A stretch of 64,000 nucleotides of DNA, from positions 410 through 64,409 of the forward strand of contig CAMYKS010000005.1 in NCBI GenBank assembly GCA_947259115.1. Direction: 5' to 3'. The DNA is from an uncultured Desulfobulbaceae bacterium. GTDB taxonomy: Bacteria; Desulfobacterota; Desulfobulbia; Desulfobulbales; BM004. Below the pieces are notes generated by a model. The model had not been told where the DNA came from and did not search any database. It saw only the letters and a list, made by a program, of their open reading frames with translations. Made by a program: the position numbers and the translations under genes. Below, piece after piece: positions 10,037 to 62,336 of the stretch; positions within the stretch are counted from its first letter, which is position 1, and each line of letters begins with the position of its first letter.

Positions 10037-10077
10037 TTTTGATACCCTACGTTTAGGAATGCCTTAAATTTTCTGTG

Positions 10078-10908
10078 TTACTCTTCTGACTTTTCCACAT
10101 CGGGAAAGGAAACGGTTACCCTCTCGCCGGCCGGCCGCTTGCCGGGGTTTGCTGCTATTACACTGATACGGAGTGTATTTGCTGCGGAATCCGCCACTGA
10201 CGCAATGTGGTCGATCTTTCCCTGCACCTCTTCTCCATCGGCAAATTTTATTACTGCTTGCTGGGTAACGGCCAATGATTTGGCATTGGATACCGGAACG
10301 GCAATATCGATCAGGAGCTCATTGATGTCAACTATGCGGATAACAGGCGCAAGGGCCTGTATGGATTCGCCTTTTTCAATTTTCACCTCTTCGACAATCC
10401 CATTGACAGGGCTCCTGATGTGAAGGTTGTTTAAAGCTGTTTTAAATTCCTTATGCTTCAACTGGTCCTGGGCGTGTTCAAACTCGGCCAGCTTTACCTC
10501 AAGCAGGGCGGTTTCGGCTGCCAGCCTTGCATGGTCAACCTCCCAGTCCGTAACAGCCCCGTTGCGATGGGCTTCCTCCATTTTCAGCAGGTCTTCTCTT
10601 TTCTGCAGGAATTCTGCCTGGCCTATCTTAATAATTGTCGTGTCATTGGCCTTGGCAGTTAACAACTGGTATTGAACCATTTCCACCTGCCCTTCCAAGC
10701 TGGCAAGTAGATCACCTACTGAGACGTGATGCCCTTCACTAACCGTCAATTTATCAACCTTGCCGTGCTGCACAAATGAAAGGCTGATATCCGCGCTGGG
10801 CTTGGTTATGGCTTCAACATCCAGCCCATGGGACAGGTGGGGTATGAAAAGAATGAACAACAGGGGGAGGGAAAAAATGGCAAGGTTTTTAAATGGGGCA
10901 GGCACCAT
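10078..10908 (-). CDS. Membrane-fusion protein / periplasmic adaptor (HlyD/RND-adaptor family)
   Basis: Start moved to the internal Met (MVPAPFKNLAIFSLPLLFILF), which has AAGGAA upstream. Contains a biotinyl/lipoyl-like hairpin (VSEGHHVSVGDLLASLE ... IRSPVNGIVEEVKIEKGESI), a coiled-coil and a beta-barrel. Lies 41 nt upstream of the TolC-like gene. Confidence 0.8.
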   Translation of the reverse strand: MVPAPFKNLAIFSLPLLFILFIPHLSHGLDVEAITKPSADISLSFVQHGKVDKLTVSEGHHVSVGDLLASLEGQVEMVQYQLLTAKANDTTIIKIGQAEFLQKREDLLKMEEAHRNGAVTDWEVDHARLAAETALLEVKLAEFEHAQDQLKHKEFKTALNNLHIRSPVNGIVEEVKIEKGESIQALAPVIRIVDINELLIDIAVPVSNAKSLAVTQQAVIKFADGEEVQGKIDHIASVADSAANTLRISVIAANPGKRPAGERVTVSFPDVEKSEE

Positions 10909-11175
10909 ATTATATTCCTTATTATATTGTTTTAATTGAAAATAGAGGACGATAACACTTTGAATCATTGAATAATTATGAGGATTTTTTCTGATTCCGA
11001 CCAATTTACAGAAATCTGATTTGCAGCCGGAAATTCATGGATCATGCAGCCAGATCAGCACATAAACACATTAAATATATAGTATTTTTGAAATAATTCC
11101 AACCATTAATATATAAATATTTCCTGCATGCTGCACTTTTCTGTCAGAAAAGGATGAATCTGATCAGCAAACGGG

Positions 11176-13167
11176 CTATTCGGATTTGCCTGAAAACGCC
11201 AGAGCGCTCTCCAGGGATTCATCAAGCTGCAGAAGCTCCTTGCGCATGCGGTAGTGTTTCCTTTCCAGGGAGCGCTGGGCCCGGCGCATTAAAAACCTGC
11301 AGAAGAGCAGATGAAGTTCACTGTTTCCACGGGCTGCCAGGCGCAGCAACATTCCGCCAAAGGTCTTTGCGAAAGGTTGCAATATCTCGTCATCCAGGGA
11401 TATATATGCTTCATGCGTGCCGGGATCGCCCTGGCGACCGCAGCGCCCGAAAAGCTGGCGGTCAATGCGCCTGGCGCTGTGCGGTTCCGTGCAAAGCACC
11501 TGCAGCCCACCCATATCTCTCACACCGGGTCCGAGCCTGATGTCCGTTCCCCGGCCGGCCATGTTGGTGGCAACGGTTATCTGTCCTTTGTCCCCTGCCC
11601 GGGCAATAACGGCGGCCTCATCTTTATCCTGCCGGGCATTCAGGACCTTATACTCCAGGCCGTTTTCGCTCAACAGACGGCTGATTTTCTCTGAAACGGT
11701 GACCGTTGGCGTGCCAATAAGCACGGGCCTGCCTTTACGGTTAAGTTCTTTAGCCCGCTGCACAACGGCGGACAATTTATTCTTCTCAGTCCTAAAATAG
11801 CGTTCGGGCAGTCCCCGGCGGATTAACGGCTTATTGGTCGGGATCCGGACAAATTTGAGGCCGTAAACCGTCCATAGTTCCCTAGCCACCTCACGTGCTG
11901 TGCCGGTCATTCCTGCCAGCATCTGATAACGCCTGAAAAAGCGCTGATAGCTTATCCTGGCAAGAGTTTCTTTCTGCGTAGAAATGGCGCAGTTCTCCTT
12001 GCACTCGATAAGCTGATGCAAACCCCTTTCCCATGAGCGGTCTGCCATGCGCCGCCCAGTGTATTCATCGATTATCTCAACCTTGTTGTCTTGCACCAGG
12101 TACTCTTTGTCTCTGTGAAAATGATGCAGAGCGACTAGTGCCATGTTTACCATTGCTTCACGCCGGCGCGAGGAAACCCAGAAGCCGCCGGCCGGGTTTG
12201 CCAGTGAGTCCAGGAAATCGCGACCTGCCTCGGTTAACTCAATGCTTTTGGCAGCCCTGTCGGAGCTGTAATGTTCAATGCTCTTGAGCTGTTTTGCAAA
12301 AGCCAGGGCCTGGACATAGGCCTTTTTTTCAAAGCTGCTGTCGCCTGCTCCGGAAATGATTAACGGGGTCCTGGCCTCATCTATCAGAACGGAGTCGGCC
12401 TCATCGATAATGGCAAAACAGAGCCCTCGCAGGATGAGGTCCTTCAAAGAACCGGCCGGGCCATAAAGTCTCTGCAACGAATAAGCAATGGGCCCGGGTT
12501 TCCGTCTGAGGCGCAGATGATCCTTCAGGTAATCAAAGACAATCTCTTTATTTGTGCAGTACACCACATCCTGCTGATACACTTTCCTCCGTTCAGCAGG
12601 AGACATATCATGGCGGATAACTCCAACACTTATACCCAGGGCTTCATAAATGGGCCCCATCCATGTTGCATCCCGCTCGGCAAGGTAATCGTTGACCGTA
12701 ATTATATGTACAGGTATGCCGGCAAGAGCGGCTGTACTGGCCGGCAATGTTGCGGTCAATGTCTTGCCCTCCCCGGTTTCCATCTCTGCAACCACACCAT
12801 TTAAGAGGGCATAGCCCCCGATGAGCTGCACATCATAATGCCTGGTGCCAAGGGTTCGTTCAGCCTGTTCGCTCACCAGAGCAAAGGCGCGGGCCGTGTT
12901 TGCAAGAGATATTCCTTCCTGCCGGAACTTTCTTCGCAACTCTGCGGCTTCGGTTTCCAATTGTCTCCCTTCGAATCTCCGGAATGCCGGGCTGAACTTA
13001 TTCACTTCTTCGATAATGGCATGAAAGCGCTCAAAGCTGGCGCCATAGCGGCTGAAAAGGTAGCCGGGATAATCATGCAGCAGGCTTTCAAATTGACTGC
13101 GAACCTCCGGGCTCCGCTCCGGATAAAAGCCGTATTTCTTTTCAAATAACATGGAATTACTAGACAT
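11176..13167 (-). CDS. SecA-like ATPase (motor domains retained, C-terminal third absent)
   Basis: Diagnostic SecA motifs: HYDVQLIGGYALLNGVVAEMETGEGKTLTATLPA, VHIITVNDYLAERDATWMGPIYEALGISVG, AIIDEADSVLIDEARTPLIISG, MLAGMTGTA, VATNMAGRGTDIRLG, GGLQVLCTEPHSARRIDRQLFGRCGRQGDPGTHEAYISLDDE. Only ~75 aa follow the last motif. The start is set at ATG 13167, which overlaps the upstream stop (ATGTCTAG); ATG 13152 is an alternative. Confidence 0.85.
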   Translation of the reverse strand: MSSNSMLFEKKYGFYPERSPEVRSQFESLLHDYPGYLFSRYGASFERFHAIIEEVNKFSPAFRRFEGRQLETEAAELRRKFRQEGISLANTARAFALVSEQAERTLGTRHYDVQLIGGYALLNGVVAEMETGEGKTLTATLPASTAALAGIPVHIITVNDYLAERDATWMGPIYEALGISVGVIRHDMSPAERRKVYQQDVVYCTNKEIVFDYLKDHLRLRRKPGPIAYSLQRLYGPAGSLKDLILRGLCFAIIDEADSVLIDEARTPLIISGAGDSSFEKKAYVQALAFAKQLKSIEHYSSDRAAKSIELTEAGRDFLDSLANPAGGFWVSSRRREAMVNMALVALHHFHRDKEYLVQDNKVEIIDEYTGRRMADRSWERGLHQLIECKENCAISTQKETLARISYQRFFRRYQMLAGMTGTAREVARELWTVYGLKFVRIPTNKPLIRRGLPERYFRTEKNKLSAVVQRAKELNRKGRPVLIGTPTVTVSEKISRLLSENGLEYKVLNARQDKDEAAVIARAGDKGQITVATNMAGRGTDIRLGPGVRDMGGLQVLCTEPHSARRIDRQLFGRCGRQGDPGTHEAYISLDDEILQPFAKTFGGMLLRLAARGNSELHLLFCRFLMRRAQRSLERKHYRMRKELLQLDESLESALAFSGKSE

Positions 13168-15307
13168 TAAAACGCTTGAGGAATAGTTGACGAACACTGC
13201 GATACCATTGAAATGCAAGGGGTTCATACCCATGGTCGAAGCGCACGTACACCCGGCTGCCGATATAGAACTTCTCCAATGGTTCGCCCATGGCTAAATC
13301 AAACTGGAAGTACCGTTCGAATGTTTTACTGCCGCTCCTGTCCAGGGGATCAACAGCGATACTGCCGCCGCCGGCAACCCCAAGGGCTGTACTTGGCAGG
13401 TGGTCAACCGCACCGGGAATTTCCCGCTCGACCTTTGCCGTATAGACCACATGCGGTTTCACTGAAAAACGTAATTCGACGCCCTCTGTTTTGCCCCGTA
13501 TCAAATCAATGTTTCTCTGCGGAACTACTACACGTATGATTGTTGCATCCTGTTTAAGGACATATCCCAGCAACTCTCCCTGTTCAATAAACCTGCCTTT
13601 CAGGTCAGCCGCCTGCGGCAGCACAAACATACCCTCTGCGGGACTTGTGATCAGCATCTCAGCAAGCCTTTCTTCGGCGCGGGACAGTCTCTCCCGGATG
13701 CCTATAATCTCTTCCTGCAGGATGGACGCCTGAACTTTATCCGTGGCGTATGCGGCATTATAGCGCAGCTCGTATTCCTTCAGCCGGGACTGGAAAATCT
13801 TTATCTGTGTGGACAGAAAGGGATCCCGGCACTCAATGAGAACTTCATTTTTTGCAACGTTACCATTTGCTTGCGCATGGATTTCTGCAACAATTCCGGC
13901 TGTGTTGGAGCGAACTTGCGCATCCTCGGGTACCCAGACAACCCCCTCGGTACGGGAATGATATGGGAACGGCAGCAGGAAGAGGAGCAGCAGCAGGCAG
14001 GTTATTACCGAGACAATAACCAGAATTATCCTGTTTCTGTTGGCCTGGTGAACAGGTGCGCTCAGCAGGGTCTGTATTTTTTTGTAAAGCGGCAGGATGA
14101 TGAACGAAAACCCTCCCCAAAGAGCCAAGAGTACTCCGAATATATAAAATTTACCGGCCACAAAGAGTATGATGGCCCCATAGATGAAAATCCGGTAGCA
14201 AAAGGAGGTAATTCCGTAAAAGAAGAGCCAGAAACGCTCCCCTGGGGCCATGTTGGGAGTTTCTATCCTGCTGTTCCCAAAGACATATCTGTTAATCAGA
14301 TAGCCGAGATATTGCATGCTGCGCTGGGCCAGGTTCGGGATATTCAGTAAATCGGCAAGAATATAATAGCCGTCATATCTGAGTAAAGGGTTGCCGTTGA
14401 AAAGCAGCGTGGAAACCCCGCCGATAAGAATGATGTTGTAGGCTGCTGCCCGCAGAAGACCGGGCTCCATGGAGAGCCAGATAAACATGGCAAATGACGC
14501 AAGCAGCATTTCAACAGCTATGCCGGCAGCGCCCACCGTTAGCCGCTGACGCCTCCGGGGAAAAACAGCTGATGAAGAGGCATCCACATAGGGAATCGGC
14601 ATAAAAACCAGAAACATGATCCCCATTTCATGCACTTCCCCGCCCCACCTCTTGACAGCATATCCGTGGCTTAATTCATGCAGGCCTTTGACGAAGGGAT
14701 ATATGATCAGCAATATGATAAGGTTGTCTTTAGCAAACACCCTGTCGGCCAGGTTTCTCGTCAGTTCATCCCAGTTGATCCCGGCCTGGACAAGCGCTGT
14801 CCCGATAATAAATACACAGAGCAGCAGGCCCGGCAAGGTATACACATACTTGACGTAACGCACTGTTCTTTCCAGAAACAGGTCGGGGTCAAGCAGAGGC
14901 AAACGGAAATAAAACGGGTTGGAAAATTTTACCTTCCTGGAGCTTTTTTCAGATTTTCGACTGCGCAACAGAAGCTCTCTGGTGTCGGGTTCCACATCGC
15001 ACAACAACACATCAGCCTCATAGAGGCGGCTGAGAAGCTGCACCATTTCCACCTGCGTGGGCGCATCATCGCTATACTCTTGCGAGACTTTCTCCCACAA
15101 CTTCTGGACGCTGTGCCTGCCGTTCATCATGCCGATCACCCTGTAGGCAATGGGGGTGAACCGAAAGACCTTGCCGGTGAGGTGGTCCTGCAGAACATAC
15201 CATAACTCGCCCCGGTATTGATGCCGGTGAATCTGTGCATGTACCTTGATCCGGGGTTTCAGGTGTGCGACTCTATACCATGAGGGACTGAATATCGTGT
15301 CTTGCAT
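13160..15307 (-). CDS. Polytopic membrane protein: M50/site-2-protease core fused to a C-terminal HlyD-type periplasmic adaptor domain
   Basis: HExxH in a TM helix (GLHELSHGYAVKRWGGEVHEMG) and the second S2P motif FNGNPLLRYDGYYILAD. About 8 hydrophobic helices lie between aa 165 and 445. The C-terminal ~270 aa have a lipoyl-like hairpin, coiled-coil and barrel (VRSNTAGIVAEIHAQANGNVAKNEVL...ITSPAEGMFV). The N-terminal ~110 aa are soluble. Confidence 0.8.
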   Translation of the reverse strand: MQDTIFSPSWYRVAHLKPRIKVHAQIHRHQYRGELWYVLQDHLTGKVFRFTPIAYRVIGMMNGRHSVQKLWEKVSQEYSDDAPTQVEMVQLLSRLYEADVLLCDVEPDTRELLLRSRKSEKSSRKVKFSNPFYFRLPLLDPDLFLERTVRYVKYVYTLPGLLLCVFIIGTALVQAGINWDELTRNLADRVFAKDNLIILLIIYPFVKGLHELSHGYAVKRWGGEVHEMGIMFLVFMPIPYVDASSSAVFPRRRQRLTVGAAGIAVEMLLASFAMFIWLSMEPGLLRAAAYNIILIGGVSTLLFNGNPLLRYDGYYILADLLNIPNLAQRSMQYLGYLINRYVFGNSRIETPNMAPGERFWLFFYGITSFCYRIFIYGAIILFVAGKFYIFGVLLALWGGFSFIILPLYKKIQTLLSAPVHQANRNRIILVIVSVITCLLLLLFLLPFPYHSRTEGVVWVPEDAQVRSNTAGIVAEIHAQANGNVAKNEVLIECRDPFLSTQIKIFQSRLKEYELRYNAAYATDKVQASILQEEIIGIRERLSRAEERLAEMLITSPAEGMFVLPQAADLKGRFIEQGELLGYVLKQDATIIRVVVPQRNIDLIRGKTEGVELRFSVKPHVVYTAKVEREIPGAVDHLPSTALGVAGGGSIAVDPLDRSGSKTFERYFQFDLAMGEPLEKFYIGSRVYVRFDHGYEPLAFQWYRSVRQLFLKRFNV

Positions 15308-15314
15308 CTTTGCT

Positions 15315-17183
15315 CTACGATATTTTTACCCAGAAACGGATGCGCATCCAATCAATAAGATCATGCATCCAGATCCAGATCAATTTACGGCGGGCCACAT
15401 GAATCTTTCCGTAGCCCTGCATTCCCGGCCTGAGCTTCTTTGAGTCCTGCAGGATACTGCCCTCCACAAGAAAGAAATTACTGCCCTCCCTGGTGGTTGT
15501 CACAGGTGTTATTTTTTCAACCGTAAAAGCATACGGACTGCCGGGCATGGCATTTAAAACAAGTTCTCCCTTCTGCCCAACTGCAACCTGATCAATGTCC
15601 CCCTCCGCAACTTCGAGCATGACCCTATAAGAGTCAAGCGGGGCAATCTGAAACAGGGTCTGCCCCCGCTCTATGGGAGCGCCGATGGATTGGCTCCAGT
15701 CGCCGCTGATAATTATGCCGTCAAAGGGTACGCTGATTTTGGCCCGGGCGATCTGCTCGTCCAGCAATGACACCTCGGATTCAGCCTGGCTCATCTGTTC
15801 CCGTATTATGTTGGACTCTGCGATCTCGTTCTTTGCCAGGGACTGGTTATATTCCAGGGCCAGCTGTTTTCGCTGGCTCGCCGACTTCAGACGCTTCAGC
15901 AGCAGGTCACGTGTATCCAGGCTGGCCAGAACTTGATCCTTGCTGACGATATCCCCAGCCCGGGCAGGGGCCTCATTGAGGTAACCGTCAAAAGGAGCAA
16001 TGACAGAACGCTGCACAGTGCCTTCCAGAACACTCGTTGCCGAAACCCGGTAATCGCCGCTGGCAACTGCAAAAAAAAGCAGCAGAGCGGCAAGGCAGCA
16101 GAACCCTAACTTCATAGCCGAATTTCCCGGACCGCAAAGCATGCGAAACCGCTCCGAGAGATGAAGCGCTGCTTTCCTGTAAAGGGGCAGATCATTCAAC
16201 TTTTTTGCTTTGAGGGTCGGACCGAGCAGGGCGGCAACCGCTTCACAGAGCAGAACCGTATTATTATCAAACGACTTCTCCGATATCCTTTCAAATGTAA
16301 GGGCCCCATAGCCTTCGTTGTCAACACCAAGAAAGGGGACCGTCAGAATGGACCGGGACCCGTGCATATTCTGCAGGACTCCATGGCAGCGTTGTATTGC
16401 ATCATCCTGTCCAGCAGCAGGGGGATACAGTATTGTTGTGCTCTGGTCAATGCTTTCATCCATGGCTTCCCCGATGGAACCGACCAGGTTCATTTTCCCG
16501 GCAAACTGGGCACTATGGGAAATGGCATCCACTTTGACCTGATTTTTTGCGCTGAATCCGATGCTGACACGTTCACACCCTAGACGGGTGGCAAGCTCGT
16601 TAACTGCAACTATTGCTGCGTCTTTAAACCTCTTCTCCTGGAGCACCGGAGCCATAACATCGAAAACCGTCATTAGGCGCTGTTGCAGCGTGTCGCCGGT
16701 CGCCCCCCCCTCAACACCATTGGTTTTATGTAAAAAAAGGCTCTCAAGCCATGCCGTACCCCACTGAATCTGGCCCATGGACATTTGCAGTTCCCGGTCA
16801 GAGGCTATCCGCAACTGAAAAACCACAACTCCCTGACGTTTTGTGCCGGCAGTGAACGGGCACCCGAGAAAAACAGATTTGCCTACATCTGCGCTGCAGT
16901 TTTTTATACCGGCTTCAAGCGAGGCAAAACATTTACCTTCCGACAGAACACGCAGAACAATTTCATCAAACCCGTCCAAGGGCTGGGGACTTTCCGGCCA
17001 GGAGGCGGCACGGGTGGGCCGGGAACCGGCTTTTGGGTCCAGATACACTGCAGCGCACTGGAGATCATGCATCATACTGCATTGAAGATTCAACCAGTTG
17101 CAGCAGAACTCCTCTTCCTTCCCAGAAGCATGAAGTTTTTGCCACATTGTCTTATTTGCAAATGAAAAATCGGCTGTATTCAT
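15315..17183 (-). CDS. GAF-like cytoplasmic domain(s) - TM - HlyD-family periplasmic adaptor fusion
   Basis: The N-terminal ~340 aa are soluble with GAF-like segments (my recognition, not verified). A single TM follows (LGFCCLAALLLFFAVASG). The HlyD-type adaptor comes next: VIAPFDGYLNEAPARAGDIVSKDQVLASLD, a coiled-coil, ISVPFDGIIISGDW, then a barrel. Its stop lies 7 nt from the start of the M50 fusion gene. Confidence 0.7.
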   Translation of the reverse strand: MNTADFSFANKTMWQKLHASGKEEEFCCNWLNLQCSMMHDLQCAAVYLDPKAGSRPTRAASWPESPQPLDGFDEIVLRVLSEGKCFASLEAGIKNCSADVGKSVFLGCPFTAGTKRQGVVVFQLRIASDRELQMSMGQIQWGTAWLESLFLHKTNGVEGGATGDTLQQRLMTVFDVMAPVLQEKRFKDAAIVAVNELATRLGCERVSIGFSAKNQVKVDAISHSAQFAGKMNLVGSIGEAMDESIDQSTTILYPPAAGQDDAIQRCHGVLQNMHGSRSILTVPFLGVDNEGYGALTFERISEKSFDNNTVLLCEAVAALLGPTLKAKKLNDLPLYRKAALHLSERFRMLCGPGNSAMKLGFCCLAALLLFFAVASGDYRVSATSVLEGTVQRSVIAPFDGYLNEAPARAGDIVSKDQVLASLDTRDLLLKRLKSASQRKQLALEYNQSLAKNEIAESNIIREQMSQAESEVSLLDEQIARAKISVPFDGIIISGDWSQSIGAPIERGQTLFQIAPLDSYRVMLEVAEGDIDQVAVGQKGELVLNAMPGSPYAFTVEKITPVTTTREGSNFFLVEGSILQDSKKLRPGMQGYGKIHVARRKLIWIWMHDLIDWMRIRFWVKIS

Positions 17184-17548
17184 CTTAAAAAAATTTTGCC
17201 CTGTAGGATTTTTCTATGACAGGCATAAGCAGTATTGTTGCAGGCCCAATAATTTTTTACTTCCAGTTCTGTAGATTCTGCTAGCGACACTCCCCTGGAA
17301 TCCATCCCCATATAACTTTTGGGGGAATATCACAAAGTTACAACAAAAAACAGCTTTTTGCTGCAATTCTGCAAAAACACTGCAAATTTTCTTATTTTCC
17401 CGGCACATAATATTGTCTAATCAAGCACTCATCATTAAAGAATATTCTTCATTTTTTCCATATACTCACTCCAACAGACATTTTTTTAATTTTTAATTAC
17501 ACAATTATATCAAATAGATAAATACAATTTATAGAAAAACCCTACAAA

Positions 17549-17564
17549 TGGCACACCCTTTGCT
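17549..17564 (+). promoter_or_regulatory. Sigma-54 (-24/-12) promoter
   Basis: TGGCACACCCTTTGCT matches the TGGCAC-N5-TTGCW consensus at every specified position. It lies 56 nt upstream of the ATG at 17620. Confidence 0.75.
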
Positions 17565-17619
17565 GAATACGCTATGGCAGTAGGGTTTACCTATCCAAAA
17601 CTTATAACTTAAAGAAGAG

Positions 17620-18438
17620 ATGAAAAACATGGATCTAAACAAAAAAACCATAGCAGTCTTGGGCTCATTGCTGATGAGCCTCGTTTTCGTTGTGCATGCC
17701 CACTCTGCAACTGTGCAGCGCTCAAATTTTATTGTGGCAAATCTTTCCTGCACTTCCTGCCTGGCGACTATAGAGACTGAGTTAAAAGGTATACCGGGCA
17801 CCCTGGGTATGGACGCCGACCTTCGCTCCGGCAGAGTAACCGTTGACCACCTGTCCTCTCTGGATTACGAAGAGATCGCTAAAACCATCAGCAATCTGGG
17901 CTATCCTGCCACTGCAGACTGGACTGCAACGGTCCCTGAACAGTCTACAAAGAAATTTGCCCCGCAAAGCCAATACCGCTCCGGTTGCTCCAGCGGAGGC
18001 TGCGGTAATGCAGGCGGCGACGGAGCAGGCCCGACGGCTTGGAAATCTCCCCCTGCCACCGGTACGGTCAACCGGACAACCATGCAGGTCAACAAACTTT
18101 CCTGTACGTCCTGCCTGAACAATATTGCTGCTGAACTGAGTAAACTCTCTGAAACTTATGGCATGAACGGCTATTTAAGCAGGGGAATTGTCCTGGTTGA
18201 CCATGAAGACTCACTGGAGAATAACAGGATCGCTGCAATCATCTCTGACCTCGGATATCCGGCAAGGGTTGTTTCAACCAACGAAATCCCGGCCCAAAAA
18301 GCTTTTACAAAAAACCCGCAGAGAGGTTCAGTAAAACAGCGAGGCAGGGGTTGCGGCTCCAAAGGCCCATGCAATGCAACATCAGCATCATGGCAGAAAT
18401 TATACAATCGTTACTTTACCCAGACAAATGCTAAATAG
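17620..18438 (+). CDS. Secreted protein with two HMA-like (heavy-metal-associated) domains and Cys-rich linkers
   Basis: Signal peptide MKNMDLNKKTIAVLGSLLMSLVFVVHAHSA. Two ~65-aa repeats each carry SCTSC (CxxC) at the HMA metal-loop position (VANLSCTSCLATIETELKGIPG; VNKLSCTSCLNNIAAELSKL), followed by ...GYPA. Linkers CSSGGCGNAGGDG and GRGCGSKGPCNA. Confidence 0.7.
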   Translation: MKNMDLNKKTIAVLGSLLMSLVFVVHAHSATVQRSNFIVANLSCTSCLATIETELKGIPGTLGMDADLRSGRVTVDHLSSLDYEEIAKTISNLGYPATADWTATVPEQSTKKFAPQSQYRSGCSSGGCGNAGGDGAGPTAWKSPPATGTVNRTTMQVNKLSCTSCLNNIAAELSKLSETYGMNGYLSRGIVLVDHEDSLENNRIAAIISDLGYPARVVSTNEIPAQKAFTKNPQRGSVKQRGRGCGSKGPCNATSASWQKLYNRYFTQTNAK

Positions 18439-18472
18439 ATATACAGCTCATAACCGATGGAGGTTTTTTAAG

Positions 18473-18964
18473 ATGGTAACTGTGAGAAAAAATTCATTTA
18501 AAATTACAATTTTTCTATTGTCCCTGGCAGCTTTAATTTTTAGTGGCTGTTCCAGTTCAACGGCCAGTAAAAGTGCTTTAACCGGCGGTCTCATCACACC
18601 GACCAACGGCAAGCTTGAAATCCCGGTTGCCGGTATCAGTGACGGTAAAGCCCATCATTTCCAGGTCAAGTCGGAGGACGGCTCCATGGTCACCTTTTTT
18701 GTACTCAAAAGTGCTGACGGTGTTCTCCGTGCTGCCATTGACGCCTGCGATGTCTGTTACCGCTCGGGTCTCGGATATTACCAGGAAGGGGACAAGATGG
18801 TCTGCAAGAACTGCGGTCAGAAATTTGCCTCCAACAAGATCAATGTCATCAAGGGCGGCTGTAACCCGGCCCCGCTGAACAGGGTTGTTGATGGTGACAC
18901 GTTGGTGATCCAGATGCGGGACATCAACATGAACAGCTGGTACATGAAATACCGCCAGTCTTAA
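18473..18964 (+). CDS. Lipoprotein with DUF2318-like Cys4 domain
   Basis: Start moved to MVTVRKNSFKITIFLLSLAALIFSGCSSS (lipobox FSGC, GGAGG upstream). Contains AAIDACDVCYRSGLGYYQEGDKMVCKNCGQKF...IKGGCNPAPL (CxxC...CxxC), which I recognise as the DUF2318-type pattern. Confidence 0.6.
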   Translation: MVTVRKNSFKITIFLLSLAALIFSGCSSSTASKSALTGGLITPTNGKLEIPVAGISDGKAHHFQVKSEDGSMVTFFVLKSADGVLRAAIDACDVCYRSGLGYYQEGDKMVCKNCGQKFASNKINVIKGGCNPAPLNRVVDGDTLVIQMRDINMNSWYMKYRQS

Positions 18965-19012
18965 TAGGATGCCTGAATAACAGACCGTTATAACGACATA
19001 AGGATCAGACTA

Positions 19013-19441
19013 ATGACCTACAATTTAGATAAATATAGGGATAAACGGGAAAAGGTGCTCGGGGTGAAAAAACGGGGCATCAGCTTCGGCACCATGGCCG
19101 GAATAGTCTCGCTGGTAATTATCCTTGGCTTAGGTGTTGTGGTGGTACCCAAGTCGATTGCCTACTTCAACACCAGGCACCTGGATGATGTCATTTATAA
19201 ACTGCAGAATGCCGAAAGCTGGACGCCGGAAACAATCACCGCCATCCAGCAGCTGGCAGGGGTTAAAAATGTTGAAACGGACAACAACAGCACAAGGATC
19301 ATTATTACCTTTGATAAATCAATAACCAATACCTATGACATTAACGCCTTCTTCAAACAGAGGGACATCCAGATAGTTCTGCTCAACCAGGTCGGTCATG
19401 CCCACAGGCTGCAGATCATGGAAAAAGAATCCAAGTTTTAA
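19013..19441 (+). CDS. Small membrane-anchored protein of unknown function (possible Cys-less HMA-like fold)
   Basis: One N-terminal TM (MAGIVSLVIILGLGVVVV). The C-terminal part, AGVKNVETDNNSTRIIITFDKSITNTYDINAFF, resembles a ferredoxin-like beta-alpha-beta domain without a CxxC. Packed tightly in the operon. Confidence 0.45.
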   Translation: MTYNLDKYRDKREKVLGVKKRGISFGTMAGIVSLVIILGLGVVVVPKSIAYFNTRHLDDVIYKLQNAESWTPETITAIQQLAGVKNVETDNNSTRIIITFDKSITNTYDINAFFKQRDIQIVLLNQVGHAHRLQIMEKESKF

Positions 19442-19451
19442 GGATAACACG

Positions 19452-20609
19452 ATGAAACTGCATAATATCTCATTCAATAACTTAAAGCGCCGCAAGGGCA
19501 AGATGATCTTTCTGGTCCTGGGGCTTTTTATCGGCATTGCCACCATCGTTACCCTGCTGTCGATCACCGAATCCATGAGTCGCGACATTGAAGACCGGCT
19601 TGACCAGTTCGGCGCCAACATTGTCATGGTTCCCAGAAGCGACAACCTGGCCCTCACCTACGGCGGTATCACCATGGGCGGTGTTAATTACCAGACGGTG
19701 GAGTTTTCCGAGGAGCGTATCCCTGAGATCAGGACCATAGAAAATTCCAAGAATCTTGGCCTTGTTGCAGCAAAAGTTCTCGGCGCCGCAAAGATCAAGA
19801 AAAGAGACGTGCTGCTCATGGGGGTTGAGTTTGAAACAGAATTGCAGCTGAAAAACTGGTGGCAGTTTGATGGCACACCACCGGCCGCGCCCCATGACCT
19901 GCTAATCGGCTCCCAGGCCGCGGCCACATTCGATGTGGTTGTCGGCGACAAGCTGGAAATTGGCGGCAGGGATTTTGTCGTTACTTCCATCCTGAAACCG
20001 ACCGGCACCTCGGAAGACGGCATCATCATCGGCGACCTGCATGCCTTCCAGAAGATACTGGGCAAAGAAGGCACGGTTTCGATGGTGGAAGTGCAGGCCT
20101 TCTGCCGAGACTGCCCCATAACGGAGATGGTGCTGCAGATAAGTGAGAAATTCCCTGAAGCAAAGGTGACCGGCCTGCGGCAGGCAATGATGTCGAAAAT
20201 GCAGACAGTTGAAATGTTTAAAACCTTCAGCTACGGTATTGCCATACTGGTAATTTTTATCGGTTCACTGCTGGTTTTTGTCACCATGATGGGATCTGTC
20301 AACGAACGGACCCGGGAGATCGGCATATTCCGCGCCATCGGCTTCCGCCGCGGCCATGTCATGCAGATCATCCTGCTGGAAGCCATGGTTGTGGGACTAA
20401 TAGGCGGTCTCCTCGGATACATAGGCGGTAACGGCATTGCCTGGGCGGCCTTGCCGCTGGTAGTCAAGAACGGTTCTTTTGCTGGATTAAATTATAACCT
20501 GGGAGGAGTGGCACTCCTGCTATCTGTTGCCCTAAGCCTGATTGCAAGCCTCTACCCTGCTCAGAAAGCAAGTAAGCTTGATCCAAGTGAAGCATTAAGG
20601 GCCCTGTAA
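19452..20609 (+). CDS. ABC transporter permease, FtsX/MacB type
   Basis: Start moved to MKLHNISFNNLKRRKGKMIFLVLGLFIGIATIV. Has the typical N-terminal TM, a ~230-aa periplasmic domain and a C-terminal FtsX 3-TM bundle (REIGIFRAIGFRRGHVMQIILLEAMVVGLIGG). Confidence 0.85.
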   Translation: MKLHNISFNNLKRRKGKMIFLVLGLFIGIATIVTLLSITESMSRDIEDRLDQFGANIVMVPRSDNLALTYGGITMGGVNYQTVEFSEERIPEIRTIENSKNLGLVAAKVLGAAKIKKRDVLLMGVEFETELQLKNWWQFDGTPPAAPHDLLIGSQAAATFDVVVGDKLEIGGRDFVVTSILKPTGTSEDGIIIGDLHAFQKILGKEGTVSMVEVQAFCRDCPITEMVLQISEKFPEAKVTGLRQAMMSKMQTVEMFKTFSYGIAILVIFIGSLLVFVTMMGSVNERTREIGIFRAIGFRRGHVMQIILLEAMVVGLIGGLLGYIGGNGIAWAALPLVVKNGSFAGLNYNLGGVALLLSVALSLIASLYPAQKASKLDPSEALRAL

Positions 20610-20640
20610 TGATTTTTATTCAATAAAATAGGATTGCACC

Positions 20641-21354
20641 ATGACAAACATGACCCATAATTCTGCTGTAGAAACAAACGTACAGCACCTTATTGAAATC
20701 CAGAATATCGGCAAGGACTACCAGGAAGGCGAGAGCACGGTTCAGGCCATAAGAGAGATGAGTTTTTTTATAGATGACGGTGAATTTGTCTCCATAATGG
20801 GGCAGTCAGGCTCTGGAAAATCCACCCTGCTTTCCATCCTGGGCGGGCTCAATCATCCGACCCGGGGACGAATACTTCTCGATACACTGGATATATACGA
20901 ACTCTCCAGCGAACAACGGGCTGATTTGAGAAGTGAATATATCGGGGTTATCTTTCAGTCCTTTCAGCTGATACCTTACCTGACTGTATTGGAAAACGTA
21001 AAACTGCCCATGGCGATTACCGGCAAAAAAGCCAAGGTGCAGGACAAGATGGCCCGCGATGTCCTCGACCGCGTTGGCCTGGCTAACAAGGCAGACCGGT
21101 TGCCTGACCAGCTGTCAGGCGGGGAACAGGAAAGGGTTGCCATTGCCAGGGCCATTGTCAATAAACCGCCAATTCTCCTAGCCGATGAGCCCACCGGCAG
21201 TCTGGACAGTAAGACTGCAGACGAAATCATGGCCCTGCTCAAAGAACTCAACAGTGAAGGCCAGACCATTATCATGGTTACCCACAACCCTGAAGCATGT
21301 AAACATACATCGAGAATCATTCAAGTCAGGGATGGTTCCTGTCATACGAATTAA
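20641..21354 (+). CDS. ABC transporter ATP-binding protein (MacB/LolD-like)
   Basis: Walker A GQSGSGKST, Q-loop, signature LSGGEQERVAIARA, Walker B ILLADEPTGSLD, H-loop VTHN. Confidence 0.9.
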   Translation: MTNMTHNSAVETNVQHLIEIQNIGKDYQEGESTVQAIREMSFFIDDGEFVSIMGQSGSGKSTLLSILGGLNHPTRGRILLDTLDIYELSSEQRADLRSEYIGVIFQSFQLIPYLTVLENVKLPMAITGKKAKVQDKMARDVLDRVGLANKADRLPDQLSGGEQERVAIARAIVNKPPILLADEPTGSLDSKTADEIMALLKELNSEGQTIIMVTHNPEACKHTSRIIQVRDGSCHTN

Positions 21355-21500
21355 AGTTATGATCATTCAAATATCTCTGCCCGGTGTGTGCCCTTTTCCC
21401 AACAGCCCTCCCAGGCTGAGGGGGCATCACATTCCCTCCTCTGGAGCCGGACTCCTGTTTTGACCTAGAGATTCGGCGACACACAACGCCCAAGCCCAGA

Positions 21501-21564
21501 GGGCCATTCGCTTGACAGCACGGGCAGAGATTAAATGCTGTTAAGAGGATGGCCCTCATTTTAT
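21501..21564 (+). terminator. Possible nested stem-loop / terminator downstream of the ABC operon
   Basis: GGGCCAT (21501-07) pairs with ATGGCCC (21549-55). An inner stem pairs ACAGCA (21515-20) with TGCTGT (21536-41). TCATTTTAT follows. The loop is long, so assignment as a terminator is weak. Confidence 0.3.
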
Positions 21565-21741
21565 GATACCCCCGCACCATTCCCCGGCACCACAACACCT
21601 CCTCTCCAGACAATACTAGTTTTTAGCTAGTATTGTACTATTATTCTTCTAATTTTAAATTATGGACAATGTAGGGTATTGTAGGCACAACTCCGGCACA
21701 CCTTGAGGTGTCAAGAAGCTCTTTACAAACTGGAGGCTTAT

Positions 21742-22995
21742 ATGGCTATCCCTAAAATTCTTGTTATTGATGATGAACCTGCCCTGCAAAAGGCCATTCA
21801 GAAGATCCTGAAAAATGAAAAGTATGATATTGCCTTTGCCGGCAACGGCATAGAAGGACTTGCACACCTGGAAAAAGAAAAGCCGGACCTGATATTCCTT
21901 GACCTGCGCATGCCGGGTCTTGACGGTTTCGGCTTTCTCGAAAAGATCAAGATTACTCCTGCTGACCCCTTTCATGTTGTAGTCATCACCGGCCATGGTG
22001 ATGACAAGGAAGTGCAGAGAAGCTTTGAACTGGGGGTAAACTTTTTCCTGCGCAAACCTTTGAGTCTCATTGAAGTGCGCTGCCTGACAAAACGTTGTCT
22101 TGAGATGAAGGCCAACGAAAGAGAACTGCGTGAACACCGCAACAGTTTAGAAAAACTTGTGGCTGCAAGAACTCTGGCTCTTGTAAATCAGGTCCGCTTC
22201 CAGCAGAACCTGATCGACTCCATTCCTGTGCCTGTCTATTTCAAGGATAATACCTTACTGTATCTTGGCTGCAACAAGGCTTTTGAGGATTCACTCGGGT
22301 ATGGCAGGGAAGATATTATAGGTAAAAGCGAGTATGCAATCATGAAGCGCAAACAAGCCAGAATCCACCATCACCAGGACATGCGTCTTATGGAAACGGG
22401 AGAAACCACTTCCTATGAAGTTTCTTGCCTCTACCCGGACGGCAGAGAGCATGAACTGCTTGTCTTCAAATCTCTGTTCTTTGATACGAAAGGGGCCATC
22501 GGTGGGCTTATAGGCGCCAACCTGGACATTACCGAACGGAACAGAGCCCAGGCCCGGGCGGAACAGCATGCCGAAGAACTCGAAAACACCAATACTGCTT
22601 TACGGGTTCTTCTGAAGCAGGTCAATGAAAATAAAACAGAGATGGAAAGCAAGGTTCTGGATAATTTTACCAGGCTGGTAAACCCTTATCTTGATCTGCT
22701 GGAAGAAAACCTGGCCAATACGCCCCAGCAGGAATATATCCATGTTATAAAAAAGAACATAAAAAAAATTACCTCTTCATTTTCCCTCAATCTCTCCTCA
22801 AGCTACCTTGGTTTAAGCCCCAGGGAGATACAGGTGGCAGACCTGGTACGCCAGGGAAGAGCGAACAAGGAAGCATCACGCATACTCAATATTTCCATTA
22901 ATGCGGTGGAATTTCACCGGAACAATCTGCGCAAAAAACTGGGTTTGCAGAACAAAAAGGTTAACCTGAGAACCTATCTGCTCTCCATGCAATAA
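21742..22995 (+). CDS. Response regulator REC-PAS-LuxR(HTH)
   Basis: Start moved to MAIPKILVIDDEP (GGAGG 6 nt upstream). REC: FLDLRMPGLDG...VITGHG. PAS-like: NLIDSIPVPVYFKDNTLLYLGCNKAFEDSLGY. C-terminal LSPREIQVADLVRQGRANKEASRILNISINAVEFHRNNLRKKLG. Confidence 0.85.
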   Translation: MAIPKILVIDDEPALQKAIQKILKNEKYDIAFAGNGIEGLAHLEKEKPDLIFLDLRMPGLDGFGFLEKIKITPADPFHVVVITGHGDDKEVQRSFELGVNFFLRKPLSLIEVRCLTKRCLEMKANERELREHRNSLEKLVAARTLALVNQVRFQQNLIDSIPVPVYFKDNTLLYLGCNKAFEDSLGYGREDIIGKSEYAIMKRKQARIHHHQDMRLMETGETTSYEVSCLYPDGREHELLVFKSLFFDTKGAIGGLIGANLDITERNRAQARAEQHAEELENTNTALRVLLKQVNENKTEMESKVLDNFTRLVNPYLDLLEENLANTPQQEYIHVIKKNIKKITSSFSLNLSSSYLGLSPREIQVADLVRQGRANKEASRILNISINAVEFHRNNLRKKLGLQNKKVNLRTYLLSMQ

Positions 22996-23155: not shown

Positions 23156-23935
23156 TTACGCCTGGATTTTCCTTCTTCTTCTTCTAAAAGCTCCGGCAGC
23201 ACCGACCAGACCTGTTCCGAGGAGGAGCATGGAGGCAGGTTCGGGAGTAGGTGTAGGTGCCTCGCAGTCAGAATCACCAGGCAGACATATAGGATCAGGA
23301 TCATAAGGGACACTTATATAGCTGTCGCTGTCGCCTGCGTCCCCAATGCCCCCGATGTGCATACCAAGCCGCAAGTCGCCATCAGCAAGATCGCCCGCGA
23401 GAGCTGCCCAGTCATCATAAAGACCAAATTTTATTCCAAGAATGTCAGCGCCTGTATCAAGGTAATCATGCCTCCGCCCCTGAGAATCTGCAGAAAAAGT
23501 TGCTATTGCCACAAATTCAGGCGAAGCATTTTCTCCGCTGGGAAGGTTTCCGGGATTTGCCCCACCACCGGCATAATTGGTAGAACCGCCGATACTGTTT
23601 ATTGGCGCGGAAGGCCCTATGAGCGGCGCCCCATTTGCCAGGGCATCAAAATAAATTTCATGCACAGCGGCAGCATAGCCACCATCAACATCATTATTAA
23701 AGATAAAAACGACTTCATTGGCTCCAAGGCCTAAGCCGTATGGTTCATGTGCCGCATCCCACACAGTCACGTGAAGCTGAGAGGACAGGTCCTCAACATT
23801 GTTATTCGTCAGTCTTACAAAATCAATGTCAATAGAATTTGCATAGGCTATCCCTGCCAATAACATTCCTGTCAGTACAAGTGCTCCAATTCCACTTACG
23901 CTGAGTTTCAGTACGCGAAAAACCTTTTTGTTCAT
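23156..23935 (-). CDS. PEP-CTERM sorting-domain protein
   Basis: N-terminal signal peptide. The C-terminus PTPEPASMLLLGTGLVGAAGAFRRRRRKIQA has the PEP motif, a TM helix and an Arg cluster. The body was not recognised. Confidence 0.85.
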   Translation of the reverse strand: MNKKVFRVLKLSVSGIGALVLTGMLLAGIAYANSIDIDFVRLTNNNVEDLSSQLHVTVWDAAHEPYGLGLGANEVVFIFNNDVDGGYAAAVHEIYFDALANGAPLIGPSAPINSIGGSTNYAGGGANPGNLPSGENASPEFVAIATFSADSQGRRHDYLDTGADILGIKFGLYDDWAALAGDLADGDLRLGMHIGGIGDAGDSDSYISVPYDPDPICLPGDSDCEAPTPTPEPASMLLLGTGLVGAAGAFRRRRRKIQA

Positions 23936-24767: not shown

Positions 24768-25553
24768 TTACGCCCGATTTTTCCTTCTTCTTCTTAAAGC
24801 TCCGGCAGCACCGACCAGACCTGTTCCGAGCAGGAGCATGGTGGCAGGCTCGGGAATAGGATCAATAGGATCTGGGATATCGACTACGGTCACCGGTTCG
24901 CTGTCATAAAGTGTGAGATGTGACAAGTTCTTACCTGAAGGCGTTGTCCAGTCACCGGATGATACAACGAGTGCCTCGTCAAGGCAAGCGACATTAAAAG
25001 GATCTGACGGATCACAGGGGCCCATCATACCTATTAGATCAGCGTCCTCGACTTCCCAAAACAATTTAAAGCCGTTGCCTGCCTTTGCTGCCCAATATTT
25101 TACCCCGGGGTCATGCATAGCAGGATCAAATGTCTCGCCGTCACCCGGTGCTTCACCGGGCGTGGGTGTGTTGTGCCACGTGCCGCTGATATTTAAGTCC
25201 TGTTCCTCCCCAGGTTCGGGGGGAGGACCGTTGACAAGATCCGAGAAAGTAAATTCCGAACCATCGACCGCTCCGAAGTAGCCGTTTATTTCATTGACAC
25301 TCAAGTCTGTGTTAAATTTAATGATTACCGGCGACAGTTCGAGGGTCTGGCCATTATCAGGATCATCCCAAATCTGGCAGGAACCAAACCCCTGCCCGAA
25401 AAATCCAGAACAATCGTTTCCGGCCAAGTCTGCTATCATGATCGGATTTGCCGAAACCGATTGCGCGCTTAGTGCCAGAAACAAAATACTAAACGCGGCA
25501 ACGCCAATTGCCCTACATCTGTTTTTATGATGCATAGTGTTTTTCTTTTTCAT
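24768..25553 (-). CDS. PEP-CTERM sorting-domain protein
   Basis: Signal peptide (AFSILFLALSAQSVSA). C-terminus PIPEPATMLLLGTGLVGAAGALRRRRKNRA. The body is unrelated to gene 1. Confidence 0.85.
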   Translation of the reverse strand: MKKKNTMHHKNRCRAIGVAAFSILFLALSAQSVSANPIMIADLAGNDCSGFFGQGFGSCQIWDDPDNGQTLELSPVIIKFNTDLSVNEINGYFGAVDGSEFTFSDLVNGPPPEPGEEQDLNISGTWHNTPTPGEAPGDGETFDPAMHDPGVKYWAAKAGNGFKLFWEVEDADLIGMMGPCDPSDPFNVACLDEALVVSSGDWTTPSGKNLSHLTLYDSEPVTVVDIPDPIDPIPEPATMLLLGTGLVGAAGALRRRRKNRA

Positions 25554-59254: not shown

Positions 59255-59398
59255 AGTACATATTATGTACAATGCATAGACATAAAATAGCAAGCGGCCA
59301 AAAAAATTAATTTGGGGTGCTTTTCACCCGGGGACTCAGTTCCTAAGGTAAAATATAACAAACATCAGCAAGCCGGCTACTCCTCAGAGAGGATGTGG

Positions 59399-60046: not shown

Positions 60047-60096
60047 GGCTATTTTCTCCTGTCTTTGATTTACCCTGTGCGGCTGAATGCCCGAAA

Positions 60097-60118
60097 GCGG
60101 CCGGAATGACCCGGCCGC
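60097..60118 (-). terminator. GC-rich hairpin between the VIT-vWA gene and the rhombosortase gene (attenuator?)
   Basis: GCGGCCGG-aatgac-CCGGCCGC is a perfect 8-bp stem. The minus-strand RNA continues UUUCGGGCAUUC. Confidence 0.5.
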
Positions 60119-60143
60119 CTCCGGGGGATGAGTTCAAAACCGG

Positions 60144-62273: not shown

Positions 62274-62336
62274 AGTTAATCCCTCCTAGAGGTTTGTTTT
62301 CTTGCTTTCGGTTTATGTTGATCTCGCTGAAGCTAT

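Follow-up and report, generated by a model that had tools for sequence, protein, structure and literature searches.

A putative periplasmic metal-handling operon of Desulfobacterota with DUF2318, FtsX and ABC genes behind a predicted sigma-54 promoter

Gene content and conservation of the operon

The 64,000-nt stretch of contig CAMYKS010000005.1 analysed here (called the window), from an uncultured Desulfobulbaceae bacterium, holds five co-directional forward-strand genes that follow a 436-bp intergenic region and are separated by gaps of 10 to 48 nt. They encode an exported protein with HMA domains, a DUF2318-type lipoprotein, a small membrane anchor protein, and the permease and ATPase of a MacB-type ATP-binding cassette (ABC) system, and a putative sigma-54 promoter precedes them. 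Judged by the comparison of related loci, this five-gene operon is real and widespread in sulfate-reducer relatives, and its gene content tentatively suggests a role in handling a metal in the periplasm. The features of the operon are as follows.

17549..17564, forward strand: sigma-54-type -24/-12 promoter TGGCACACCCTTTGCT, exact consensus
17620..18438, forward strand: exported protein of 272 amino acids (aa) with two units, each an HMA domain (Pfam HMA) and a Cys-containing tail
18473..18964, forward strand: DUF2318/FtrD-like lipoprotein, 163 aa, with five conserved Cys (PF10080; the start is backed by homologues)
19013..19441, forward strand: single-pass inner-membrane anchor protein, 142 aa, with one transmembrane helix and no Pfam family
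19452..20609, forward strand: MacB/FtsX-type permease with MacB_PCD and FtsX domains
20641..21354, forward strand: ABC ATPase of the MacB/LolD/FtsE type (ABC_tran)

The original prediction for this DNA had described an exact -24/-12 promoter ahead of five co-directional genes, an exported first product with two HMA domains, CTSC loops and Cys-rich Gly linkers, a second product with a CxxC...CxxC domain of the DUF2318 type, a small anchor protein, and a MacB/FtsX ABC transporter. The promoter and the genes lie as described, and the domain assignments are borne out by the Pfam searches, the self-alignment of the first product and the four transmembrane segments of the permease, with refinements for the HMA and anchor proteins that are given below.

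A species-level scan, with one genome per species, yielded 100 loci with a DUF2318 relative, the best 80 of which were retained; the counts of neighbouring HMA-type, anchor, FtsX, ABC, regulator and kinase genes are limited to loci whose contig extends far enough. All 80 loci belong to Desulfobacterota, namely Desulfobulbales, Desulfobacterales (including Desulfobacula and Desulfobacter) and Syntrophales, with Hydrosulfovibrio ferrireducens as the one cultured strain among them, and most hold the full operon. The anchor gene follows the DUF2318 gene in 66 of 72 loci, FtsX comes next in all 61 and the ABC gene next in all 56. Across these Desulfobacterota the neighbourhood is kept in its core, with an HMA-type CxxC gene upstream of DUF2318 in 43/60 loci.

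The first product has a Sec-type signal peptide and an HMA domain at residues 37-95 (Pfam E = 1.5e-12), which scores 48.1 bits against a gathering threshold of 24.8 bits. The second HMA domain, tested alone, gives a weak Pfam match below this threshold (E = 0.039, 14.8 bits). Both units carry LSCTSC, and BLASTP aligns one half to the other with 43% identity over 100 residues, a stretch that takes in the Cys linker (E = 8e-22), indicating that the protein is a tandem duplication of a unit made of an HMA domain and a Cys tail. The top NCBIfam matches are CopZ (E = 1e-12) and then MerTP/MerP, all under the curated cut-offs, and the ZntA model also matches weakly. As in CopZ and MerP, the domain has the order beta-alpha-beta-beta-alpha-beta and its CxxC loop comes after the first strand, but the protein differs from both in being exported and tandem, and in having Cys-rich Gly linkers and a conserved C-terminal tail.

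This C-terminal region carries the motif C-x5-C-NATSASWQKLYNRYF and a tail that reads ...C-NATSASW-x-x-L-Y; the C-terminus of the window protein, GCGSKGPCNATSASWQKLYNRYF, is a member of the same tail family. The double HMA arrangement is restricted to the clade of the window. In most other clades a single HMA domain precedes Gly/Cys-rich tails that contain CC pairs, and in the Hydrosulfovibrio/Desulfurivibrio clade the HMA domain is lost, leaving a small exported protein with C-x2-C-x4-C and then PATAASW-x-x-L-F-R-K. The HMA assignment itself is correct, but the tandem is a feature of one clade, the others having one HMA domain or none. The tail motif is kept in Desulfobulbales-type relatives, including those without an HMA domain, and the Cys-rich tail that outlasts the HMA domain in these clades may be the element recognised by the rest of the machine.

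The second product matches PF10080 (now named FtrD-like) with an E value of 4e-31 and carries the lipobox LIFSGC; its only hydrophobic segment is the signal peptide, which is of the Sec type. The Cys motif is CxxC-x15-CxxC-x15-C, with a spacing slightly different from that of the Fet-type motif CxxC-x(13)-CxxC-x(14,15)-C. The 90%-clustered sequence collection contains 3037 relatives, the closest of which are all 160-167 aa long and come from Desulfobulbaceae and Desulfobacterales, and 1626 relatives are found among 50%-identity representatives (E <= 0.001), where the best 150 are, with few exceptions, 100-260 aa long. A PDB sequence search with the protein gives no matches at E <= 10, and among the NCBIfam models there is a weak match to the selenoprotein MbdU (E = 0.005).

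The anchor protein has a conserved basic cytoplasmic N-terminus, one transmembrane helix and a periplasmic domain of about 85 aa. The family alignment contains no conserved Cys, and the periplasmic domain of the window protein is Cys-less. In the AlphaFold2 (AF2) model this domain shows the order beta-alpha-beta-beta-alpha-beta, as in HMA domains, and HMA domains (ATP7B, MerP, CopZ) dominate the Foldseek matches, with a target TM-score of about 0.55-0.6 and a root mean square deviation of about 3.2 Å over about 70 residues, at E values of 1.6e-3 and weaker. There is also a weak match to the MerP profile of NCBIfam, and some homologues are labelled CopZ by JGI. The alignment of the anchor family to the HMA domains of the operon by hhalign is in register but too weak to count as evidence by itself (E = 0.034, probability 1.5%), and the PDB sequence search with the anchor returns two chance-level matches only. 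The protein is, tentatively, a membrane-tethered, Cys-less HMA-like domain, which refines the earlier description of a small anchor protein: the single-pass protein is present, and its periplasmic part is probably HMA-like.

The permease contains a MacB_PCD domain (E = 9e-15, residues 21-214) and an FtsX domain (E = 6e-21, residues 263-378), with hydrophobic segments at residues 15-43, 252-285, 301-326 and 346-371, and its relatives in the PDB are MacB, Spr0694-0695, YtrF and LolC/E. The ATPase is an ABC_tran protein (E = 8e-35) with LolD- and MacB-type NCBIfam matches under their cut-offs. The pair resembles the MacB or type VII family in its four transmembrane helices, in the periplasmic core domain between the first and second helix, and in the adjoining ATPase of the LolD/MacB/FtsE type. 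It differs from the known members of this family (MacAB-TolC, LolCDE, FtsEX) in its partners, which are small, predicted metal-binding proteins, and in that all family-specific NCBIfam models score far under their cut-offs. Type VII (MacB-type) ABC systems perform mechanical work in the periplasm rather than passing a substrate through the inner membrane, and this mechanotransmission is taken over into the scheme proposed below. The operon contains no membrane-fusion or outer-membrane partner, and queries with the TolC and membrane-fusion protein (MFP) sequences of Pelobacter matched no related locus; the window does have HlyD and OEP genes, but upstream of the operon and on the opposite strand.

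Predicted promoter, upstream site and regulators

Of all sites in the 64 kb, only the promoter TGGCACACCCTTTGCT fits the sigma-54 consensus TGGCAC-N5-TTGCW exactly, with 0.10 matches expected from shuffled sequence; at least one exact match occurs in 10 of 100 shuffles of the window. It lies on the forward strand, 55 nt ahead of the ATG at 17620, and a simple scan listed no sigma-70-like site on the forward strand of the intergenic region. The pattern with one mismatch is not enriched in the window (3 found, 3.5 expected). Taken alone, the window match is modestly beyond chance, and it becomes convincing because it is conserved in the relatives: the element is found with at most one mismatch in 34/66 related loci, against 0.015 expected per 1.5 kb.

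The conservation extends to a palindromic site upstream of the promoter, with a possible second copy in the window.

17436..17451, forward strand: predicted upstream activator site, palindrome TAAAGAATATTCTTCA (family consensus TGnAGAATATTCTnCA), 113 bp before the -24 element
17404..17419, forward strand: tentative degenerate second site CACATAATATTGTCTA, a weak match to the palindrome

The window palindrome has one mismatch to TGnAGAATATTCTnCA and is the only match in the window at no more than one mismatch, with 0.02 expected. The consensus palindrome is found upstream of the operon in every clade, often in two copies that are 22-23 bp apart, and in the relatives it is located between a regulator gene and the operon. 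At the position of the second site, a motif resembling CAATATTGT recurs in the closest relatives (our loci L005, L007 and L010-L013). The promoter with a relaxed -12 element, TGGCAY-N5-TTG, is present in 60 of the 64 sources that have the palindrome, 99-179 bp downstream of it (background 0.01 per 220 nt); in Desulfobacula-type clades and Pelobacter the -12 element reads TTGA or TTGT, not TTGC.

A histidine kinase and a response regulator with REC, sigma-54 AAA and HTH_8 domains are encoded by the two genes immediately ahead of the operon in Hydrosulfovibrio (L029) and Desulfobacula (L062). Among loci with enough upstream sequence, an NtrC-type regulator stands upstream in 34/49 and a kinase in 33/49, and the pair is also found upstream in the closest relatives of the window (L005, L007, L009-L013). 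The kinase has three or four N-terminal membrane helices without a periplasmic domain and a short loop with conserved His residues; a Pfam search with its N-terminal region gives no family match. Both proteins match only the generic classes AtoS/ZraS and AtoC/NtrC/ZraR, below the cut-offs. A comparable arrangement is known from ZraSR-ZraP, where a histidine kinase and an NtrC-family regulator activate the sigma-54 promoter of periplasmic metal-stress genes. In the present case, by contrast, the kinase of the relatives lacks a sensor domain in the periplasm, the genes under control bear no relation to zraP, and the window is without the pair.

Six loci hold standalone DUF2318 lipoprotein paralogues (59-67% identical) without an adjoining anchor, FtsX or ABC gene.

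L016, near 5646: standalone DUF2318 gene
L019, near 3746: standalone DUF2318 gene
L021, near 3791: standalone DUF2318 gene
L022, near 2311: standalone DUF2318 gene
L023, near 7932: standalone DUF2318 gene
L026, near 8001: standalone DUF2318 gene

These paralogues have the same palindrome and TGGCAY-N5-TTG promoter, about 100-140 bp apart, and because both elements are shared they would belong to the same regulon as the operon. Their surroundings (L017, L023) are housekeeping genes, which are uninformative on function.

Some points count against this picture of the control. The kinase-regulator pair is absent from the 64-kb window, where the upstream neighbour of the operon is a divergent GAF-HlyD gene, so that for this genome sigma-54 dependence is predicted from the promoter and the upstream site. 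The window encodes a single sigma-54 activator (57773-59293, reverse strand), which is 35% identical to the family regulator in the AAA domain only, and no REC or HTH domain is detected in it. Because the pair is absent and this activator is alike only in its AAA domain, the cognate activator is probably encoded elsewhere in this genome. Finally, in three loci an Rrf2-like regulator, recognised by eye with Cys cluster ligands, replaces the pair and lies directly upstream of the DUF2318-anchor-FtsX-ABC genes.

L048, 7289-7684: Rrf2-like gene
L064, 1149-1568: Rrf2-like gene
L083, 7025-7444: Rrf2-like gene

Enhancer-dependent control, as originally proposed, is nevertheless strongly backed by the regulator pair, the palindrome and the promoter of the relatives. 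The activator, which had been left unnamed, can be narrowed by inference to a member of the NtrC-type family with a predicted palindromic site, its gene probably lying outside the window.

A second sigma-54-like element, TGGCACAGGTTTCGCT (62337-62352, one mismatch), is found on the reverse strand 64 nt upstream of a VIT-VWA gene (60144-62273). This gene is followed on the same strand (region 55863-62352) by a small open reading frame, the sigma-54 activator mentioned above and a PLD-family gene, and a weak copy of the palindrome with three mismatches lies near the cluster at 62656.

The kinase without a sensor domain recalls Bce-type systems, in which such kinases are paired with FtsX-family transporters. 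By analogy, the transporter would serve as sensor and pump in the export of, or the immunity to, a secreted Cys-rich peptide or an external antimicrobial, with the HMA domains being incidental. In favour of such a role, the product of the first gene is in some clades no more than a small exported protein with Cys and the conserved tail, and the ATPase matches models of bacteriocin- and darobactin-export ATPases, under their cut-offs. We nevertheless regard such a role as very improbable, as the permease has the short MacB architecture with four transmembrane helices and not that of the 10-helix BceB, the regulator is of the NtrC and not of the OmpR type, and both the strictly conserved DUF2318 protein and the frequent HMA domains would be left without a role.

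Relation to known systems and possible function

DUF2318 proteins with FtsX-type ABC components had been named in the original prediction as companions of P19/Ftr1-type iron uptake loci, and this link is accurate (PMC10783030, PMC6083913); the literature on DUF2318 covers the domain only as part of FetA in fetMP-fetABCDEF. The genes fetA to fetD are each needed for growth at low iron in Campylobacter jejuni, their biochemical role being unknown (PMC10783030), and DUF2318 genes are described to map “almost always” to FetMP-type clusters (PMC6083913). A cluster on an Escherichia coli IncF plasmid is complete in this respect, with FTR1, P19, a 459-aa “Fe-S-containing protein”, two permeases, an ATPase and TlpA. 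The window proteins are measurably related to its products: the DUF2318 protein is 30% identical to FetA residues 242-393 (E = 6.5e-17), the permease aligns end to end with FetC (E = 6e-23) and FetB (E = 4e-21) at 22-23% identity, and the ATPase is 45% identical to FetD (E = 2e-64).

Both systems place a periplasm-facing DUF2318 motif of the CxxC...CxxC...C type beside FtsX permease and ABC ATPase genes. In the operon described here, however, DUF2318 forms a 163-aa lipoprotein, whereas in FetABCD it belongs to a polytopic protein of 459 aa that also has a YHS domain; only a single permease gene is present instead of two; the HMA protein and the anchored HMA-like protein are additional; and the predicted control is by sigma-54 and a two-component system instead of Fur. 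A tblastn search with the E. coli plasmid FetM, FetP and FetE/F proteins against the window and, within about 8 kb, 84 related loci found no homologue of any of them, confirming the lack of Ftr1 and P19 noted earlier. As none of three defining features that were looked for (Ftr1/P19, the polytopic FetA with its YHS domain, and the thioredoxins) occurs here, the operon is not a member of the FetMP systems; the most fitting place for it is as a variant of the FetABCD-type DUF2318/FtsX/ABC module that stands free of them. We found no description of this system in the literature.

Outside the clade, the sampled contexts also combine short DUF2318 genes with FtsX and ABC genes, without Ftr1 or P19. 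The recurrence of DUF2318-FtsX-ABC without these proteins therefore suggests that the three genes form the conserved unit, with FetMP being one partner and not the defining context.

Some of the sampled contexts have unusual arrangements. In one locus (L090, 4459-9992), the gene for a 575-aa protein with a fourfold DUF2318 repeat stands among two FtsX genes, an ABC ATPase gene and another DUF2318 gene, and the group adjoins a large protein with a weak Cu-oxidase match. In another (L093, 6001-9467), DUF2318-FtsX-ABC is followed by an HMA-SurA_N protein and an OEP-OmpA protein, and an Anaerolineae locus (L088, 7001-7888) holds a thioredoxin-DUF2318 fusion that stands alone.

The kinship to FetABCD raises the possibility that the operon is an iron-uptake accessory, aiding an iron permease encoded elsewhere by periplasmic iron reduction or hand-over. 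The shared core, each gene of which is needed at low iron in C. jejuni (PMC10783030), and the homology to FetA, FetB/C and FetD would speak for it. Against it stand the lack of an Ftr1, P19 or thioredoxin homologue in the searched DNA, the kinase, NtrC-type regulator and sigma-54 promoter in place of the Fur box described for fetMP, and the context of the Pelobacter copy described below, which is one of copper and heavy-metal resistance. Moreover, no known system uses HMA domains or Cys-rich tails to ligate iron. We consider an iron-uptake role improbable.

A second alternative is a periplasmic thiol-redox or electron-transfer device, with DUF2318 as a ferredoxin- or rubredoxin-like or dithiol-disulfide centre and redox-active CxxC motifs. 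The AF2 model of the DUF2318 protein gives weak, consistent matches to Rieske-type ferredoxins (E about 5e-3, TM-scores 0.34/0.48), which would fit a rubredoxin- or Rieske-like metal knuckle, and NCBI labels relatives “Fe-S-containing protein”. The Fet model likewise proposes a relay of reducing power (PMC10783030), and the thioredoxin-DUF2318 fusion of the Anaerolineae genome would suit such a device. On the other hand, the fold match is weak, and the recurrent HMA, YHS and CsoR contexts are typical of metal trafficking. The signals of both exported proteins are of the Sec type and not of the twin-arginine type, which argues that any cofactor is acquired in the periplasm; together with the lipobox they argue against the export of a pre-assembled Fe-S cluster. 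A redox role of this kind also appears improbable.

Instead, we tentatively favour a reading in which the operon, under enhancer-dependent control, serves to handle a thiophilic metal in the periplasm, with Cu(I) as the likeliest candidate; we would give this reading slightly less than an even chance. An informative context is found on the Pelobacter propionicus plasmid pPRO1 (L085/L087, record positions 15696-21561), where the module has the order HMA-DUF2318-FtsX-ABC-M23 peptidase-kinase-sigma-54 regulator and lies between CsoR/P-type ATPase/heavy-metal-binding genes and TolC-MFP-CusA/CzcA, in a block that adjoins a Tn3-family transposase. Its proteins are orthologues of those of the window or of Hydrosulfovibrio, with identities of 51% (FtsX), 59% (ABC), 37% (kinase) and 49% (regulator). 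In addition, DUF2318 membrane proteins and HMA-DsbD_2-DUF2318 fusions belong to an inferred copper-responsive CsoR meta-regulon of gut Firmicutes (PMC4938975). In other lineages, the HMA-SurA_N protein of L093 and the weak Cu-oxidase match beside the L090 module likewise tie the module to metals. As indirect leads, the best match to CopZ, the pPRO1 context and the CsoR meta-regulon all point to copper or a similar soft metal, so that the open list of Cu, Fe or Ni in the original prediction can be narrowed in this direction.

The pPRO1 copy has features of its own: the anchor gene is absent, the DUF2318 protein is anchored by a transmembrane helix and not lipidated, and the M23 gene stands between the ABC and kinase genes. 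Some 290 bp ahead of the HMA gene, counted from its annotated start, there is a degenerate palindrome together with TGGCACGGCATTTG.

The metal could also be another soft one (Zn, Cd, Hg, Ni or Co), possibly scavenged rather than detoxified, with metals held as sulfides in sulfidic habitats being recovered by high-affinity thiolate carriers and released by ATP hydrolysis. The HMA CxxC loop also occurs in Zn, Cd and Hg systems, and the MerP, MerTP and ZntA models match weakly. The organisms with the operon are anaerobic Desulfobacterota from sediments, most chromosomal loci have no nearby resistance genes, and a dedicated two-component switch would suit scarcity as well as excess. MacB-type ABC systems, however, are not known as importers, and the only metal-informative contexts, the pPRO1 block and the CsoR meta-regulon (PMC4938975), indicate copper resistance. 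Overall, we regard another soft metal or scavenging as unlikely.

For the handling of Cu(I) or a similar metal, the observed gene content and domains and the conservation of the core and of the regulatory elements suggest a scheme in which we infer the identity of the metal, the direction of its transfer and the contacts between the proteins. A metal signal in the envelope would act through the kinase and the NtrC-type regulator at the TGnAGAATATTCTnCA palindrome to activate the sigma-54 promoter. All products except the ATPase would face the periplasm. There, the soluble protein with HMA domains and Cys tails would bind the metal, the five Cys of the DUF2318 lipoprotein would provide a second thiolate site, and the tethered Cys-less HMA-like anchor may be a docking or coupling partner. 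ATP hydrolysis by a dimer of the MacB-type permease with its ATPase would then drive the transfer or release of the metal among the periplasmic carriers, for sequestration or removal. As no MFP/TolC partner is conserved, periplasmic sequestration or hand-over is favoured over expulsion from the cell. Of the earlier suggestion of a distinct periplasmic module for metal handling or extrusion, the gene content is supported by the comparison and metal handling would fit it, but extrusion out of the cell is not supported.

Several observations weigh against this assignment. The only characterised relatives, FetABCD, serve iron uptake (PMC10783030). The first product does not reach the equivalog level for CopZ (48.1 bits against a cut-off of 91) or for MerP (26 bits against 92.55). 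From its CxxC motif, an HMA domain cannot be assigned to Cu, Zn, Cd or Hg. A tblastn search of the window and the 84 loci with the Pelobacter CsoR, P-type ATPase, heavy-metal-binding, TolC, MFP, CusA and YHS queries gave one P-type ATPase (L058) and one M23 match, and the single P-type ATPase indicates that metal-resistance neighbours are not general; they directly adjoin the module only on the Pelobacter plasmid. Among the loci no membrane-fusion or outer-membrane partner is conserved, leaving extrusion out of the cell unsupported. The AF2 models are of moderate confidence for the DUF2318 protein (mean predicted local distance difference test score, pLDDT, 70.5) and of low confidence for the anchor (pLDDT 58). 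Furthermore, we know of no experiment on any member of the subfamily.

The NosDFY-NosL system, which delivers copper to nitrous oxide reductase, shifts Cu(I) inside the periplasm by means of an ABC motor, a lipoprotein metal chaperone and a periplasmic acceptor. The likeness to the operon is one of functional analogy only, as NosY is not of the FtsX type, NosL is not a DUF2318 protein and no NosZ-like client is linked to the operon. By this analogy, DUF2318-FtsX-ABC might be a general ATP-driven machine for periplasmic metal transfer, acting like NosDFY-NosL but made of unrelated parts and loading Cu(I) onto carriers or stripping it from them, which is a speculative and rather doubtful proposal. 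If it were true, the Desulfobacterota operon would be a free-standing form of this machine with HMA-type clients, and copper loading of P19, for example, would explain why FetABCD is needed in FetMP iron uptake, which is so far unexplained.

Neighbouring elements and meaning of the module

The operon is followed by a conserved RNA element and a regulator gene.

21372..21565, forward strand: conserved structured RNA of about 190 nt, GAGGGCCAT...ATGGCCCTC with a T-run terminator, in the 350-bp spacer after the ABC gene
21745..22995, forward strand: response regulator with REC, PAS and LuxR(GerE) domains (Pfam)

The RNA element consists of three hairpins and a GC-rich intrinsic terminator, which is the first terminator after the ABC gene, and contains long invariant runs, including the invariant 23-mer AACGCCCAAGCCCAGAGGGCCAT. 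In the alignment, 94.7% of the cells are paired, compared with 35-46% in slid controls, and 12 pairs are changed on both sides, compared with 5.8 +/- 1.6 in shuffles, none of 500 reaching the observed value. There is no Rfam match at E <= 1. Every locus with the REC-PAS-LuxR gene downstream contains the element, as do 27 of the 30 metagenome sequences that match its 22-nt core. The other three core matches were rejected, two (L101 and L104) lacking the other conserved segments and one (L109) lying at a contig end without the flanking genes. The element is found only in the spacer between the ABC and regulator genes and stays with the regulator where the upstream ABC gene differs (L111). It is probably the end of the operon transcript and/or the leader of the next gene. 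A pseudoknot is possible between the 5' sequence TCTCTGCCC and the complementary loop GGGCAGAGA, as is an antiterminator in which CCTCTGG pairs with the complementary 5' arm of the terminator; in both pairings the bases concerned are nearly invariant.

The REC-PAS-LuxR gene is found downstream in the closest clade, but in only 4/47 species-level loci overall, and it is an uncertain member of the system. Between the RNA element and this gene lies a palindrome, ACAATACTAG-N7-CTAGTATTGT (21610-21636, forward strand). Its core TACTAG-N7-CTAGTA is kept in L005, L006, L007, L011 and L013, and the palindrome may be an operator for the LuxR-type regulator.

Upstream of the operon, a divergent cluster on the reverse strand (7958-17183) encodes a 692-aa TolC-like OEP protein that also matches SPOR weakly, an HlyD protein of 308 aa and a SecA-like ATPase of 685 aa, whose wing/scaffold match is marginal at best and falls short of the threshold (SecA_SW, E = 0.06). 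A further protein, of 715 aa, combines an HlyD part with regions resembling PqqD and an M50 peptidase, both of which narrowly miss the Pfam thresholds, and the cluster ends with a 622-aa GAF-HlyD protein. The cluster looks like an unusual secretion or peptide-export system and is not kept beside the operon in the relatives. Two secreted proteins encoded on the reverse strand (23156-23935 and 24768-25553) end in PEP-CTERM-type sorting signals, …PEPASMLLLGTGLVGAAGAFRRRRRK and …PEPATMLLLGTGLVGAAGALRRRRK.

The operon described here points to a large free-standing subfamily of DUF2318 proteins, with a close relative in about 100 Desulfobacterota species, in which the core is separated from iron uptake. 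A module without an iron permease, with HMA-type proteins and a switch of its own, would offer a simpler system for learning the role of this core. For anaerobes that are hard to study, it now defines a predicted regulon with a palindrome, a promoter and a regulator family, which is open to testing.

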